Of a stretch of DNA of 64,000 bases, positions 31-25,905 are shown piece by piece (position 1 is the stretch's first letter; every line of letters begins with the position of its first letter). The notes beneath the pieces are model-generated. The model did no database searches, had not been told where the DNA came from, and worked only from the letters and a program-made list of their open reading frames with translations. This DNA comes from an uncultured Candidatus Saccharibacteria bacterium (GTDB taxonomy: Bacteria > Patescibacteriota > Minisyncoccia > Phycocordibacterales > G965230995). The position numbers and the translations under genes were made by a program. The stretch is taken from positions 309,204 through 373,203 of the forward strand of contig OZ246398.1 of the NCBI GenBank assembly GCA_965230995.1, in the 5' to 3' direction.

Positions 31-735
31 GAAAGGCCAGAAAGCAGCCCGTCTGTGATCTGGGGTCACGTCCGATCTTTTACCCGCTCTCCCAACAAGG
101 GCACCCACTATGATTGCGCGCCTCGTCGCCTAGTGCTCCCCGGCTAAGTGCGCACGGTACGAAACCCCAACCCCTCGCCAAGTTTCTGTGGTGCGAACCA
201 TGTGACTGAAGCGAGGGCTCGTTTTTTATATGACAAATTAATAAACCCTTGCATATTTTTTGAATATGAGTAGTATCTCTATTTGAAACAGTACCGCCAA
301 CCGCAAACACGTGGGAGGCATATGCTCAAGCTCTTGTTTTTTGTGGTTGTTGCCATGATTGCTCCACGAGGAGATTCTCAGCTGGCGTCGTCTCACTGCC
401 TTTCAGTGATCAACGATGTTTGTCCTTGCTGGTGTCTTCCGGGTGCGATCTGGTACCAAACGATGCCCTGCGTCGCTACGCTGGGTACGAGACAAGAACA
501 GTTCGAACAAGAAAGAGAGGAGGAGCCCGAAAGGGTTATCTCATCCGAATCGAGCGGAAGCTCTTCGGAAGAGAACGCGCGTTGCGCATCGTGTAACGCG
601 CGCGGTCCGCCCGAGCATTCATCAGCATTTCTTCGGTAGGGTCCACAAGTCAACCTCGACGAGGATACCTTCCGAAATTCTTCGACCCCCGGGTCTGCGC
701 GAGCAGATCTCGGGGGTTCACCATATATATTGACT
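31..735. other. GC-rich island A upstream of rplJ. It is either a structured RNA or a foreign cassette. A candidate small Cys-rich ORF lies on + at 312..639.
   Basis: By eye about half the bases are G+C, against roughly one third in the flanks. Nested stem-loops with GNRA/UUCG-type loops are present, e.g. ctcttcggaagag at ~562-574, cgcgcg...cgcgcgcg at ~586-612, and ccccgggtctgcgcgagcagatctcggggg at ~687-717. The + ORF has gggagg 3 nt before its ATG and a hydrophobic N-terminus followed by a Cys-rich stretch. No convincing long ORF is present. Confidence 0.3.
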
Positions 736-880
736 TTGTTTAACAATAAAGGTAATCTACAATCCAAGGCCAGAGACAATAGGTAGCCTAGAGAAAAGGG
801 CATAAAACCTATCGAGGTTAACACAAAGTGTGTTTTCTATGTCGGCCAAAGGTCGATTATTTTTTTTAAAAAAATAACTT

Positions 881-1372
881 ATGGCAGTTACAAAACAAAA
901 GAAAATGGAAATCCTAGAGGGACTCAAAAATTCCCTAAAGGATGCCGGATCAGTAGTTTTTGTAAAATTCCACGCTCTAACAGTTTCCGAAGTGAACGAA
1001 CTTCGAAAAGCTCTAAGGGTAAAGAATGTTTCTTACAAAGTCGCAAAAAAGACTTTGGTGAAGAAAGCTCTTGAAGATGCAAAATATCAAGGAGAAATTC
1101 CAGCTTTTGATTCTGAGCTAGCGCTCGTATCAGGTGCTGACATCCTCGATCCTGCTCACGAGATATACGAATTCGAGAAGAAATTCAAAGATAAAGTATC
1201 TATCTCTGGCGGTGTATTTGAAGGAGTTTACAAAAATCGAGAAGAAATGCTTGTGATAGCAATGATACCTGGACGACAGACACTTTATGCTCAGTTTGTT
1301 AATCTCATTAACTCACCAATTCAGGGTCTCGTTATCGCATTAAATGAAGTAGCAAAAACAAAGACTTCATAA
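881..1372 (+). CDS. rplJ: 50S ribosomal protein L10
   Basis: The translation MAVTKQKKMEILEGLK...VVFVKFHALTVSEVNELRKALR is typical of L10, and the gene sits immediately upstream of L7/L12. Confidence 0.9.
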   Translation: MAVTKQKKMEILEGLKNSLKDAGSVVFVKFHALTVSEVNELRKALRVKNVSYKVAKKTLVKKALEDAKYQGEIPAFDSELALVSGADILDPAHEIYEFEKKFKDKVSISGGVFEGVYKNREEMLVIAMIPGRQTLYAQFVNLINSPIQGLVIALNEVAKTKTS

Positions 1373-1397
1373 AATTAAAAGAAATTAATATAACAAT

Positions 1398-1811
1398 ATG
1401 TCAGACGAAACAAAAACAACCGGGGCAGAGGAAAAGATCGAAACCCCAGCACAGTTCAAGACAGTTGTCGATGCTATCGAAAAAATGTCAGTCATCGAAT
1501 TGAATGAACTCGTAAAATTTCTAGAAAAGAAATTTGGAGTTTCTGCTGCAGCAGTAGCAGTAGCAGGTCCAGCAGCAGCTGGAGCAGCTGCAGAAGAAAA
1601 GACATCATTTGATGTTGAACTAAAGGATGCCGGAGCTCAGAAGATCGGAGTCATCAAAGTAGTAAAGGAAGTATTGGGACTCGGTCTAAAGGAAGCAAAG
1701 GATCTAGTTGATGCAGCTCCTTCAAAACTAAAGGAAGGAATGAAGAAGGAAGAAGCCGAAGCTCTAAAGAAGAAAATCGAGGAAGCAGGAGGAAAAGTTG
1801 AGTTGAAGTAA
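1398..1811 (+). CDS. rplL: 50S ribosomal protein L7/L12
   Basis: The protein has an Ala-rich hinge ([19 protein letters not shown]) and the C-terminal domain motif [24 protein letters not shown]...[21 protein letters not shown]. Confidence 0.92.
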
Positions 1812-1842
1812 ATTAAAAACCGCGAAAGCGGTTTTTAATTTG
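1791..1842 (+). repeat. 52 bp direct repeat, copy 1 (rplL 3' end plus terminator)
   Basis: ggaaaagttgagttgaagtaaattaaaaaccgcgaaagcggtttttaatttg is repeated at 2029..2080 with a single C>T difference. Confidence 0.8.
1812..1842 (+). terminator. rho-independent terminator after rplL
   Basis: The hairpin aaaaaccgcgaaagcggttttt is followed by a T-rich tail. Confidence 0.6.
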
Positions 1843-2028
1843 CGAAACGAGACTTTTCGTCCTGCTTCGGGAAGGGTTCGGGAAACGGGAGTTTCCTGTG
1901 TAGGATAGCAGTGAGCTTTGCGAACGTTGAGAACTGTGGGCGACTAAGAAAATAATGACCGAAGGGAATATATTTTTTGAAGTACTCTTGTGGTGTTCTC
2001 AAGGAGAAGCATTGCTTCGACGGCTGGT

Positions 2029-2080
2029 GGAAAAGTTGAGTTGAAGTAAATTAAAAACTGCGAAAGCGGTTTTTAATTTG
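2029..2080 (+). repeat. 52 bp direct repeat, copy 2 (duplicate of the rplL 3' end/terminator, not followed by rplL)
   Basis: The copy is near-identical to 1791..1842 and lies 186 bp downstream. Its hairpin is weakened by the C>T change. Confidence 0.8.
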
Positions 2081-23994: not shown

Positions 23995-24003
23995 TTAAAA
24001 AAT

Positions 24004-24040
24004 AAACACCCCCGCAAGCTTCGCTTGCGGGGGTGTTTAT
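24004..24040 (+). terminator. terminator after pyk
   Basis: aaacacccccgcaagcttcgcttgcgggggtgttt. Confidence 0.6.
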
Positions 24041-24071
24041 CATTTCACCTTAAAAATGTATTATTAAGCCT

Positions 24072-25394
24072 ATGATATTTAAAGGCAAAAAAGTTACGGT
24101 AATGGGCTTGGGGCTTTTGGGGCGTGGAATTGGTGATGCCAAATTTTTGGCAGAGCAGGGCGCAGAGCTTATTGTGACTGATCTTAAAACAGAAGAACAG
24201 TTGGCCGATAGTGTTGCCCAGTTTTCTGGAATAAAGAATGTGGCTTTTCACCTAGGCGGACACAGAATGGAAGATTTTGAAAATAGAGATTTTATTCTAA
24301 AAGCTGCCGGTGTTCCGATGGATTCTCCATATATTGCTCATGCCAGAGAAAACGGCATTCCAATAGAAATGAGTACTTCGCTTTTTTGTTCACTTACAAA
24401 GGCAGCTGTGATAGGTGTAACAGGCACAAGGGGCAAAACTACAACAACACAATTTATTTATGAAGGTCTAAAGAGGGCGGGCAAAAAAGTCCACTTGGGC
24501 GGGAACATAAAGGGTGTCTCAACTCTTGCAATGCTTCCGTCTGTAGCTAAAGATGATTATGTTGTTTTGGAATTAGACTCTTGGCAACTTCAGGGTTTTG
24601 GTGAGAGAAAAATTTCTCCTCATATTGCAGTCTTCACGACTTTTATGGAAGACCATATGAATTATTACAAAGGTGATATGGATACGTATCTGGCAGACAA
24701 GGCTAATATTTTCTTGAATCAAAATGCTGGTGATACTCTTGTAGTGGGCGATCAATGTGCTGATTTGATTTTGAATAAATACGGAGAAAAAATTAAAGGT
24801 AAAAAAGAAATTGCTCGCGCAGGGGATATTCCCGCTGATTGGAAATTGCAGATTTTGGGTGATCACAACAAATACAATATTGCTGTTGGGCGGTTGGCAC
24901 TTTTGGCGTTAGGAATATCTGAGCAAATAATAAAAGAAACAGCAGAAAGTTTTAAAGGTGTCGAGGGTAGACTTGAATTCAAACGTGAGGTAAAAGGCGT
25001 AAAGATATACAATGACACAACGGCGACAACTCCCCAAGCTACGATTGTTGCTCTGAAAGCTCTGCCGATAGAACGTGTGGTTTTGATTATGGGTGGGGCT
25101 GACAAAAAAATAGATATGGGTGAACTTGTAAAAGAGTGGCTACCAAAAACAAAGAAAGTGATTTTGCTACCCGGCACTGGTACAGACAGGATAAAGAGCG
25201 AATTTGATTTTGCTAGTTTGGGAATCAAATCAGTACAAGCTTTTGATTTGGCCGATGCGGTGAGAGAGGCGATGGCATTATCTGTAAACGGTGACTCTAT
25301 TCTATTTAGCCCCGCCTTTGCTTCATTTGGAATGTTCAAAAACGAATATGACAGAGGAGAAAAGTTTGATGAGATTGTGGAGAAAATGAAATAA
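24072..25394 (+). CDS. murD: UDP-N-acetylmuramoylalanine--D-glutamate ligase
   Basis: N-terminal KVTVMGLGLLGRGIGDAKFLAEQGAELIVTD and the Mur ligase P-loop GVTGTRGKTTTT. Confidence 0.85.
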   Translation: MIFKGKKVTVMGLGLLGRGIGDAKFLAEQGAELIVTDLKTEEQLADSVAQFSGIKNVAFHLGGHRMEDFENRDFILKAAGVPMDSPYIAHARENGIPIEMSTSLFCSLTKAAVIGVTGTRGKTTTTQFIYEGLKRAGKKVHLGGNIKGVSTLAMLPSVAKDDYVVLELDSWQLQGFGERKISPHIAVFTTFMEDHMNYYKGDMDTYLADKANIFLNQNAGDTLVVGDQCADLILNKYGEKIKGKKEIARAGDIPADWKLQILGDHNKYNIAVGRLALLALGISEQIIKETAESFKGVEGRLEFKREVKGVKIYNDTTATTPQATIVALKALPIERVVLIMGGADKKIDMGELVKEWLPKTKKVILLPGTGTDRIKSEFDFASLGIKSVQAFDLADAVREAMALSVNGDSILFSPAFASFGMFKNEYDRGEKFDEIVEKMK

Positions 25395-25502
25395 AATATT
25401 GACAAATAATTTTATTTATGTATAATATATATAGAAAATCCTTCTAACTGTCACGCATGTGACGGAGGGGTTTAACTGGCTATAACGAAGGAGGGTGTTT
25501 AT

Positions 25503-25820
25503 ATGCCGTTTTTAAGTCCGTTCACTCCACCTGCATGGGAATATGCAGAAGGTGTGGCCACTGATTCGTCAGTGTGCTCGAAGTGCAATCGTCACATCAT
25601 CGGAAGTATGAGCGACCACGACTTCGATGCTCATCGCCGTAGGTTTGCAGGAAGTTGCATACTTTGCTACTACTCCTGTAGTGAGGCAGTTTTCCGTAGA
25701 CACCTGGTAGAACGTCATCCGACAATCAAGACCTGGGAGCAATTCTGGACTGAATACGACAGAATCTCTCAAGATGATGGTGACCCAGACCATCATGAAG
25801 ATCTGCACGATCACGGGTGA
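25503..25820 (+). CDS. small Cys/His-rich protein with two C2H2-like zinc-finger-type spacings and an acidic His/Asp-rich tail, in GC-rich island E
   Basis: aaggaggg lies 7 nt before the ATG. An upstream palindrome gtcacgcatgtgac is present. Spacings are CSKC-x10-H-x4-H and CILC-x11-H-x4-H. The hairpin ccccaccggtgcgctcgagcgctggtgggg plus T-tract terminator lies at ~25835-25878. Confidence 0.4.
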   Translation: MPFLSPFTPPAWEYAEGVATDSSVCSKCNRHIIGSMSDHDFDAHRRRFAGSCILCYYSCSEAVFRRHLVERHPTIKTWEQFWTEYDRISQDDGDPDHHEDLHDHG

Positions 25821-25905
25821 GACCTGTTGTCACATGCCCCACCGGTGCGCTCGAGCGCTGGTGGGGTCGCTTTTTTTATATTCAAATCTCATATATGATA
25901 ACTAT

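Follow-up and report, generated by a model that had tools for sequence, protein, structure and literature searches.

The DNA analysed here is a stretch of 64,000 nucleotides (the window) from an uncultured Candidatus Saccharibacteria bacterium (GenBank assembly GCA_965230995.1, contig OZ246398.1, positions 309,204 to 373,203, forward strand). Its first 26 kb contain five short G+C-rich segments, which we call islets (I1 to I5). The evidence is computational and draws on few orthologs. It covers the 64-kb window and, through the independent 20-kb contig L006, a further 8.6 kb beyond its upstream edge.

The islets lie between conserved genes, as a reading made from the sequence alone (the sequence-only reading) had proposed. 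Their annotated neighbours are the L10 leader/rplJ and rplL, Bac_transf and SecD, 16S and tRNA-Ile, and MurD and MurC. That reading had also judged the segments by eye to be about half G+C in flanks of about one-third, and measurement agrees: their G+C is, in order, 0.528, 0.446, 0.508, 0.555 and 0.515, where the window as a whole has 0.358. Four segments are thus at 51-56% and one at 45%, compared with 36%. I2, with the lowest G+C, is the weakest of the five. Besides the segments, runs of at least 0.46 G+C per 400 nucleotides (nt) occur across the 64 kb only in the 23S, 5S and 16S genes. The islet units, with their open reading frames (ORFs), coding sequences (CDS), untranslated regions (UTRs) and product lengths in amino acids (aa), are as follows; promoters and terminators were called by consensus match to the sequence.

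31-232, + strand: I1a, G+C-rich, no convincing ORF; hairpin plus T-run at 208-229
249-719, + strand: I1b unit; promoter TTGCAT (249-254)-N16-TAGTAT (271-276), 5′ UTR, GGGAGG at 313-318, hairpin without T tract at 684-719
322-639, + strand: I1b CDS; 105 aa, signal-peptide-like N-terminus, 7 Cys
1785-2085, + strand: I2a; 63-nt direct repeat (1785-1847 and 2023-2085; 92% identical) bracketing a 175-nt ORF-less stretch (1848-2022)
2078-2445, + strand: I2b unit; promoter TTGACA-16-TATTAT at 2078-2105, AGGAG at 2139-2143, hairpin plus T-run at 2387-2445
2151-2387, + strand: I2b CDS; GTG start, 78 aa
15234-15871, + strand: I3 unit; promoter TTGACT-17-TAAAGT at 15234-15262, CGGAGG at 15294-15299, terminator at 15838-15871
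from 15308, + strand: I3 CDS; frameshift at a G9 tract (15681-15689); one added G gives 170 aa, ending at about 15819
20237-20900, + strand: I4 unit; promoter TTGCTT at 20237-20242 and TATAAT at 20259-20264, 5′ UTR of about 60 nt with hairpin, AAGGAGT at 20318-20324, long hairpin terminator at 20849-20900
20330-20827, + strand: I4 CDS; 165 aa, signal peptide; assigned to the destabilase/i-type lysozyme family
25399-25877, + strand: I5 unit; perfect TTGACA-16-TATAAT promoter at 25399-25426, 5′ UTR of about 70 nt with hairpin, AAGGAGGG at 25488-25495, terminator at 25836-25877
25503-25820, + strand: I5 CDS; 105 aa, 5 Cys, His-rich, no signal peptide

Islet 1 extends about 650 bp upstream of the window, where I1up (L006:7987-8553) has an ORF for a predicted secreted protein of 188 aa. 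Because islet 1 runs past the window edge with this further G+C-rich gene, the units total about seven rather than five (I1up, I1a, I1b, I2b, I3, I4 and I5, from L006:7950 to window position 25877); none is found from 26 to 64 kb. All are oriented on the + strand, like their neighbours. The coding islets follow one layout: a sigma-70-type promoter, a leader of about 37-70 nt that often holds a hairpin, a GGAG motif, a small ORF of 78-188 aa and a G+C-rich hairpin. Their products are mostly predicted to be secreted or Cys-rich.

The five single-gene cassettes of the sequence-only reading are thus self-contained promoter-to-terminator units, but their number is about seven, I2 is composite and I3 is frameshifted. 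The private terminator that it gave to each is present as a hairpin plus T-run 3′ of I1a, I2b, I3, I4 and I5, and I1b has a hairpin without the T tract.

Islets deviate from the host in codon usage as well as in G+C runs: G+C at third codon positions (GC3) is 0.47-0.66 in islet ORFs, against 0.19-0.37 in 40-odd host ORFs. The k-mer profile, compared through the composition-corrected dinucleotide signature, also differs. Pooled islets lie at δ* = 106 from the host; host samples of equal size give 44.7 ± 13.3 and, in 300 draws, never more than 89. Split into halves, the islet set shows a mutual distance of 67 and distances of 96-116 from each half to the host.

All islet genes (5/5) have a GGAG-type motif 5-9 nt ahead of the start, compared with 1/39 host genes (Fisher p = 5.5e-6). 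The contrast that the sequence-only reading had drawn, of Shine-Dalgarno (SD)-like sites on islets and not on host genes, is therefore borne out.

A host ribosome without an anti-SD sequence

SecD relatives place the genome in the Paceibacteria/Parcubacteria, within the Candidate Phyla Radiation (CPR); the best match among 185,579 species representatives is about 61% identical. The 3′ tail of its 16S rRNA, at 20009-20022 (+), reads GAUGUAAUUCAAGG, where the usual bacterial sequence is GGAUCACCUCCUUU; by Rfam alignment it has no CCUCC. This tail type, GGAU(U/A)AUUC... without CCUCC, is found in five Paceibacteria: the window genome, L008:11776, L026:5245, L038:19669 and L116:806. A hidden anti-SD in the form of CCUCCU was sought downstream of the 16S gene and not found. 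Pairing of GAGU with AUUC as a substitute was dismissed, being too weak and lacking generality.

Loss of the anti-SD is already known for the host clade: a published survey places it in about half of the Parcubacteria, overlapping with the lineages that lack uL1 (Tsurumaki et al. 2022, RNA 28:1041, PMC9297842). No rplA is seen in the 8.6 kb ahead of rplJ, as would fit membership in this uL1-less group.

Of 39 host genes, with starts across window positions 881-61776, 14 have a TATAAT-like hexamer whose end lies 4-10 nt ahead of the ATG. Such closeness of -10-like hexamers to the start codons suggests that host housekeeping mRNAs may be largely leaderless. Over about 90 related loci, the frequency of SD-like motifs is at background (0-0.2).

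I4 is a predicted secreted lysozyme-family enzyme

Searches of Pfam, PHROGs and PADLOC with all islet proteins and four look-alikes returned no significant family, the PHROG E values all being at least 0.1. I4 alone stays below every Pfam threshold, and a profile of I4 and its ortholog matches i-type lysozymes weakly (E = 0.03-0.05). HMMER recruitment of relatives gave 170 hits, and a 27-member alignment was built. Of its members, 19 match the Pfam family Destabilase (PF05497; best E = 9.7e-13) and 8 match SLT. The family profile matches the i-type lysozyme structures 8bbu (E = 2.4e-26) and 2dqa (6.7e-18).

The family carries two blocks, (V/L)ES.G...GD.G.S.G..QI..Y..DA and R.HNGGP, represented in I4 by LESSGG, GDKGESFGSFQIQ and RTHNGGP. 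E43, Q63, Y68, R134, H136 and N137 are nearly invariant in the alignment, and G60, D71, G138 and G139 are invariant. By analogy with i-type lysozymes, the Glu of the ES motif is the putative catalytic residue. The AlphaFold model of I4 is poor (predicted local distance difference test, pLDDT, 52).

By its family profile, I4 is a signal-peptide-bearing member of the destabilase/i-type lysozyme family, and a secreted muramidase-type enzyme is the predicted product. The SLT-type transglycosylase first proposed for it was right as to secretion and the lysozyme superfamily, but the family is destabilase/i-type and not SLT proper (19/27 against 8/27).

The other islets

I3 as assembled is read in a shifted ORF, with a 206-aa product, that crosses the terminator and whose stop overlaps the secD start (ATGA, 15925-15928). 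With the frame restored, it is 57% identical end to end with P0009, a protein of another metagenome. A 31-aa stretch is identical in this homolog while the underlying DNA differs synonymously. Differences per codon position are 0.28/0.27/0.58 for I3 and its homolog, and 0.35/0.28/0.57 for I4 and its closest homolog. Because they concentrate at third positions, both genes are judged to be protein-coding. I5, I2b and I1up are putatively coding from their ORF, motif and terminator geometry.

The I3 motif FGNCH...HSW...DP recalls a Cys-His-Asp hydrolase (transglutaminase/papain-like) and suggests such a function, with the motif as its sole support. A PDB profile search with I3 gave no hit, and the AlphaFold model of its homolog is poor (pLDDT 46). 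The C2H2-like label of the sequence-only reading is likewise putative for I5, which matched nothing in the family libraries. In I3 the frame is set by a homopolymer, as in phase-variable genes: G9 is out of frame and G10 in frame, and the tract of P0009 is G7. Variation in tract length was not seen, the same 206-aa frameshifted product standing on three contigs and G9 also in an independent contig.

The homolog of I3, on contig L088, adjoins rplU, a context other than that in the window, and retains the GGAG motif. A second G+C-rich patch lies beyond rplU on that contig (L088:1190-1500).

The direct repeat of I2a consists of the last rplL codons and the rplL terminator. In the second copy the coding part is changed only synonymously and still reads AGGKVELK-stop; the duplicate looks like a leftover homology arm. 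Folding of I2a is no better than that of shuffles (z = -1.1). For I2b (GC 0.44, GC3 0.47), the GTG at 2151 is the likelier start over the ATG at 2097, because the latter falls within the -10 region.

I1a gives no Rfam match and also folds no better than shuffles (minimum free energy z -1.4). Over all islets, Rfam at gathering and E-value thresholds returns nothing; in the window its matches are confined to rRNA, tRNA, a group I intron and the L10 leader.

Islets occupy the same sites in related genomes

The nearest relative, R, comes from the JGI metagenome 3300014205, with contigs L087 (16S spacer) and L089 (rplJ region). Between the window and R, rplJ is 83% identical as protein and 78.6% as DNA. 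In R, an I4 homolog of 54% identity lies in the 16S-to-tRNA-Ile spacer with near-identical flanks (L087). L116 and L117 come from two genomes more distant than R. Contig L116 has 16S, an I4 homolog, tRNA-Ile (inverted) and a Na/Ca exchanger, with 81.7% identity over the 16S 3′ part plus spacer. In L117, an I4 homolog is followed by a second secreted islet gene, tRNA-Ile, the Na/Ca exchanger and pyruvate kinase. L118, a 907-bp contig, has an I4 homolog without flanking genes. Promoter, leader hairpin, an A/C-rich stretch and a GGAG placed 6-9 nt ahead of the ATG are retained in all five I4-family genes, whereas the remaining leader has diverged.

L117 also has a weak Y1_Tnp (IS200/IS605-type) gene at 4789-5451, 3.4 kb downstream of the I4 slot. 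It is AT-rich and host-like, and no link to the islets was established.

I1a and I1b are common to the window genome and R. A block of about 90 nt in I1a (about 60-150) is conserved in the alignment with L089. The I1b CDS is only 33% identical in R, with every indel within the ORF a multiple of three; its promoter, 5′ UTR and GGGAGG are strongly conserved, more so than the CDS. I1up is absent from R and for that reason may be a recent gain.

Between the same flanks, R also lacks an AT-rich block of the window genome, L006:6494-7917. It contains genes for an HTH_17 (excisionase-type) protein and for a membrane protein of 252 aa, together with two tiny ORFs. With its host-like composition, it is an insertion or deletion separate from the islets.

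Divergence gives an indication of age. Nonsynonymous divergence (dN) of I4 between the window and R is 0.40, and that of a host TPR protein, likewise 54% identical, is 0.39. Synonymous sites are saturated in all genes compared between the two (proportion of synonymous differences, pS, 0.67-0.76). With a dN matched by an ordinary host protein in the same pair of genomes, I4 has diverged like a resident host gene.

The sequence-only reading had favoured recent acquisition, and named relatives with the same G+C-rich genes at the same sites as the finding that would speak against it. Such relatives exist for I4 (L087, L116 and L117) and for I1a and I1b (R). On these comparisons, recent import is refuted for I4, I1a and I1b, which lie in fixed intergenic slots common to related genomes.

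All five islets as recent, unameliorated foreign acquisitions, phage-moron-like or mobile cargo, would account for the atypical G+C, GC3 and dinucleotide signature, for SD sites unlike those of host genes and for ORFan products; the absence of I1up from the nearest relative and the ongoing degeneration of I3 also fit. However, I4 stands at the same site down to about 82% identity of the 16S 3′ part plus spacer, with saturated synonymous sites and host-like dN, and I1a and I1b are common with R. Already refuted for these three, the explanation is improbable for the set. A site empty in relatives, the trait of a recently acquired islet, is seen only for I1up and not for I4, I1a or I1b.

Assembly, mobility and donor searches

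A chimeric assembly, in which G+C-rich fragments of another organism are joined to an AT-rich genome, had been offered as the other way to explain the islets. Sharp compositional borders would suit it, and conserved neighbours could mis-join. The junctions are nevertheless reproduced at 99.9-100% identity in independent contigs (Logan assemblies of runs SRR14271365-74). Five such contigs cover the I4 junctions (99.9-100% identical over 19873-21393), one 20-kb contig holds I1up, I1, rplJ, rplL and I2, a 10.5-kb contig contains the I3 junctions together with the G9 form, and contigs of 18 and 23 kb contain those of I5. The same architecture recurs in genomes from unrelated samples, and the border promoters are host-like and AT-rich. 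Because independent assemblies span every junction, a chimera is excluded, and we give it practically no weight.

No integrase, transposase or phage gene lies next to any islet; the upstream HTH_17 gene on L006 stands apart from them and is AT-rich. Among viral contigs and among phage and plasmid records there are no relatives of I3, I4 or I5, and the proposed link to phage morons or mobile cargo was not found for these three. For I3 and I4, no donor was found in 5.8 billion proteins, viral contigs, phage or plasmid records: homologs occur only in similar Paceibacteria contexts. The lack of adjoining mobility genes and of phage or plasmid homologs counts further against recent acquisition.

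The G+C of islet genes is retained and their RNA tends to fold strongly

GC3 of the five I4-family genes is 0.66, 0.69, 0.61, 0.48 and 0.49, and that of their host genes 0.23-0.39. In a simple two-state relaxation under host AT bias, with at least one synonymous substitution per site and lineage, we estimate that GC3 would have fallen to about 0.34. As it is undecayed though synonymous sites are saturated, we infer that islet G+C is being maintained.

Folding was scored on the CDS only, as z against dinucleotide-preserving shuffles. The I4 family gives -5.8, -4.4, -7.6, -2.4 and -5.5 (window, R, L116, L117 and L118). I1b gives -3.7 in the window and -4.1 in R, I1up -3.6 and the second L117 islet -4.0. 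Islet genes at other Paceibacteria loci give -5.6 (L060), -3.5 (L062), -1.9 (L057) and -1.2 (L058). The mean over 15 islet-type CDSs is -3.8, against -0.44 over 26 host CDS segments (Mann-Whitney p = 2e-6). In eight secD segments from Paceibacteria, which are G+C-rich too, the mean is -0.64 (p = 4e-5 against the islet type), so G+C richness alone does not yield strong folding.

For I4 the sense strand scores -7.9 and the antisense strand -4.3. When the five I4-family sequences (48-59% DNA identity) are aligned in a codon-aware way, the consensus energy is -41.8, against -18.9 ± 3.9 for column shuffles (z = -5.9). In the MAFFT alignment, two-sided changes occur in 30/86 predicted pairs, against 18.6 ± 2.8 in shuffles; 80.5% of the cells at consensus pairs can pair, compared with about 40% when the partners are slid. 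Strong folding is a tendency of the class, strongest in I4, and no full explanation of the G+C.

These values raise the question of whether the segments are structured non-coding RNA genes with incidental ORFs. Their G+C is similar to that of rRNA genes, and the folding z is very negative for I4, I1b and I1up. I1a and I2a have no convincing ORF, I1a has a conserved block, and the I1b 5′ UTR is better conserved than its CDS. The codon-position pattern and protein conservation of I3 and I4, the membership of I4 in a recognisable enzyme family and the indels of I1b in multiples of three all argue the other way, as do the lack of any Rfam match and the shuffle-like folding of I1a and I2a themselves. 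We regard such an origin as very improbable.

GGAG motifs persist where no anti-SD can read them

GGAG is kept in I1b of both genomes, in the I3 homolog and in all five I4-family genes. In the window genome and in L116 the 16S is demonstrably without an anti-SD, yet GGAG is retained on the islet genes. At other Paceibacteria loci the motif precedes 6/6 GC3-outlier genes that have a plausible start, against a background of about 10%. In the literature we found nothing that describes positionally conserved, G+C-rich, GGAG/SD-bearing and strongly folded genes in CPR bacteria lacking the anti-SD, nor any paper on the source runs.

The islet genes might be built for another translation system. In the strongest form their stable, strongly folded mRNAs, or the DNA itself, would be effectors expressed by the SD-dependent ribosomes of the host cell that the episymbiont attaches to. 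In a milder form anti-SD-less Paceibacteria would have a second, leadered initiation route, on which a reader distinct from the 16S tail recognises GGAG, and the genes using it would be a class under separate regulation. We hold the whole idea to be a long shot.

Slots change their content

In three other genomes (L057, L058 and L060) a conserved order is found: an oxidase-like gene, an islet, a 265-aa gene, secD and secF. The genes between these flanks are G+C-rich, GGAG-led and about 190-210 aa long, and mutually unalignable. A relative of the L057 gene (40% identical) stands at a second site in L058, after secF. The L057-L062 proteins have short N- and C-terminal motifs in common; for this reason they may form one very fast-evolving family and not swapped cargo.

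The slot ahead of secD (L057:7650-8960, L058:8030-9120, L060:7960-8940) is bordered by conserved hairpin-forming elements, upstream GTTTGCCATAGCTTTAAG...AAAGCTATGGCAAAC and downstream AAGTTGGAAGAAnAnCTnTAAACTTCC. A hairpin resembling the upstream one also lies ahead of the second family member (L058, about 12390-12450). The elements may be terminators or recombination sites.

As patterns, then, the slots acquire, shed or exchange content over some time scales: I1up is absent in R, the I3 homolog is relocated, the L057/L058/L060 genes are unalignable and the rplL 3′ end is duplicated. The conserved flanking genes are plausible recombination anchors.

The same patterns feed a rival explanation, repeated cassette replacement. 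Slots would be recombination hot spots where the conserved flanks (rRNA, tRNA, ribosomal-protein, sec and mur genes) serve as homology arms. G+C-rich SD-bearing genes would be imported from an unsampled G+C-richer pool, for instance mobile elements or other lineages, and the content would always be young and for that reason G+C-rich. Common flanks around unalignable genes in L057, L058 and L060, the L057-gene relative at another site in L058, the I3 homolog in a different context and I1up in the window genome but not in R all fit it. So do the rplL 3′ duplicate, whose synonymous-only differences recall a homology arm from a related donor, and a dinucleotide signature that is unlike the host and more alike among islets. 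Horizontal gene transfer and genomic islands are moreover reported to be common in Patescibacteria (PMC12455944). Against this, the I4 homologs in L087, L116 and L117 keep family, slot and the layout of promoter, UTR, GGAG and terminator, and their divergence tracks the host. The donor searches in 5.8 billion proteins, viral contigs, phage and plasmid records gave no donor, and the terminal motifs of the L057-L062 proteins allow one fast-evolving family. Cassette replacement thus appears unlikely, though it deserves to be kept in view.

Interpretation

We give an even chance to the following: the islets are long-resident, self-contained, leadered accessory genes, whose G+C is kept probably through selection on stable, base-paired mRNA, whose products are secreted or act on the envelope, and whose slots occasionally exchange content. 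Each islet would be a self-contained leadered transcription unit in anti-SD-less Paceibacteria whose housekeeping mRNAs are largely leaderless. Selection at the RNA level would be the most likely agent keeping G+C high, and the islets would make up an expression class of their own, with mRNAs that are leadered, stable and strongly base-paired. The probable place of action of their products is the cell envelope or the outside of the cell, as would be useful to an organism that lives attached to a host and depends on it. I1b and I1up would be small secreted proteins, and I3 would contribute its Cys/His/Asp motif. Turnover of the slots would probably proceed by recombination through the highly conserved flanking genes.

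Several points weigh against the long-resident, leadered genes so described. No reader is known for the conserved GGAG on a ribosome that lacks the anti-SD, and for this reason "leadered and translated" is an assumption. Long residence is shown for I4, I1a and I1b only, and I3 is frameshifted in all three samples. I5 (z = -1.7), I3 (-1.6) and the whole I2b unit (-1.6) fold only mildly and are G+C-rich all the same. Covariation was counted on the very five sequences from which the consensus structure had been predicted, and the RNAalifold covariation term is slightly unfavourable (+4.5 kcal/mol). Host transcripts including terminators reach z = -3.6 to -5.7; the whole-transcript score was dropped for this reason, and only the CDS-only comparison is valid. 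Finally, repeated import of G+C-rich genes could also hold G+C high, and the match between I4 and host divergence would then be a coincidence.

Detection of horizontal transfer by composition would flag the islets as recent imports. Some have nevertheless kept their slots since before genus- to order-level splits, unameliorated, so a factor other than mutation pressure sets their composition. If functional, a GGAG at the proper distance from the start in anti-SD-less lineages would offer a handle on translation initiation in ribosome-reduced bacteria. The islet products, a putative secreted lysozyme-family enzyme and small, secreted, fast-evolving proteins, are plausible tools of CPR-host interaction, a class of genes that is largely unknown. 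High GC3, GGAG, a leader, strong folding and conserved neighbours together make a search recipe, which picked similar genes in other Paceibacteria loci.

Other features of the window

The rRNA genes are unlinked: 23S (4472-8234) and 5S (8336-8441) lie 10 kb upstream of 16S (18534-20022), which is followed by tRNA-Ile and no 23S. The 23S spans 3763 nt, against a model of 2925 nt, and contains a group I intron (82.6 bits) and about 550 nt of further insertions; 6489-6772 is listed inside its span.

Two tRNA-Ile-like fragments (20957-20993 and 21189-21332) flank the real tRNA-Ile (21062-21136). The upstream one is a diverged copy of the 5′ half and occurs in R too (L087, about 835-895). The downstream one starts with the tRNA 5′ acceptor and ends with the T-arm and 3′ acceptor, with about 100 nt between. 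Neither is called as a tRNA by ARAGORN or Rfam. Between this fragment and the Na/Ca exchanger gene, a short G+C-rich patch (21380-21460) consists of GAGCCGGACCGAAGCGGAGCGGAGGGAGGCGGGGTCGCGAC and then a hairpin with T-rich flanks; it has no ORF and no Rfam match.

For a host gene, rplL has an unusually strongly folding transcript when the terminator is included (1398-1850; z = -5.65). This is likely due to self-complementary GCAGC/GCTGC runs that encode the Ala-rich hinge.

Comparison with known systems

Morons are said, after Hendrix and colleagues, to be promoter-gene-terminator units of deviant composition between conserved phage genes. The islets are like them in being single genes with their own promoter and terminator, odd composition, a place between conserved genes and an accessory function. 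They differ in lying outside any prophage, with no phage genes or homologs, and in keeping their positions from genus to genus, at least as regards I4 and I1b, where morons are sporadic.

With integron cassettes the islets have in common small single-gene units and a slot content that differs between relatives. They are, however, dispersed, not arrayed, and have their own promoters. No attC-like sites or integrase were noticed near the islets, where no dedicated attC/IntI search was made.

Acquired genomic islets resemble them in atypical G+C, codon use and dinucleotide signature, in ORFan content and, for I1up, in presence/absence. Lawrence and Ochman reportedly modelled the amelioration of horizontally acquired genes. 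Set against such a model, islet composition is undrifted despite saturated synonymous divergence and a site of common ancestry; there are also no mobility genes, and the units are single genes.

The host 16S tail without CCUCC is that of the anti-SD-less Parcubacteria ribosomes. What the islets add is genes that retain SD-like motifs in such genomes, which the accessible part of the published account (PMC9297842) does not describe.

I4 resembles i-type lysozymes (PF05497; 8bbu, 2dqa and 3ab6) in its two signature blocks and its profile match. Animal i-type lysozymes are disulfide-rich, whereas I4 is bacterial, has a signal peptide and only 3 Cys, and by itself is below the Pfam threshold.

Some RNA viruses have genome-scale ordered RNA structure, and some long-lived mRNAs are highly structured. 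The islets are chromosomal bacterial genes and differ from both in this respect; what they have in common with them is coding RNA that folds far below composition-matched shuffles (z -4 to -8).

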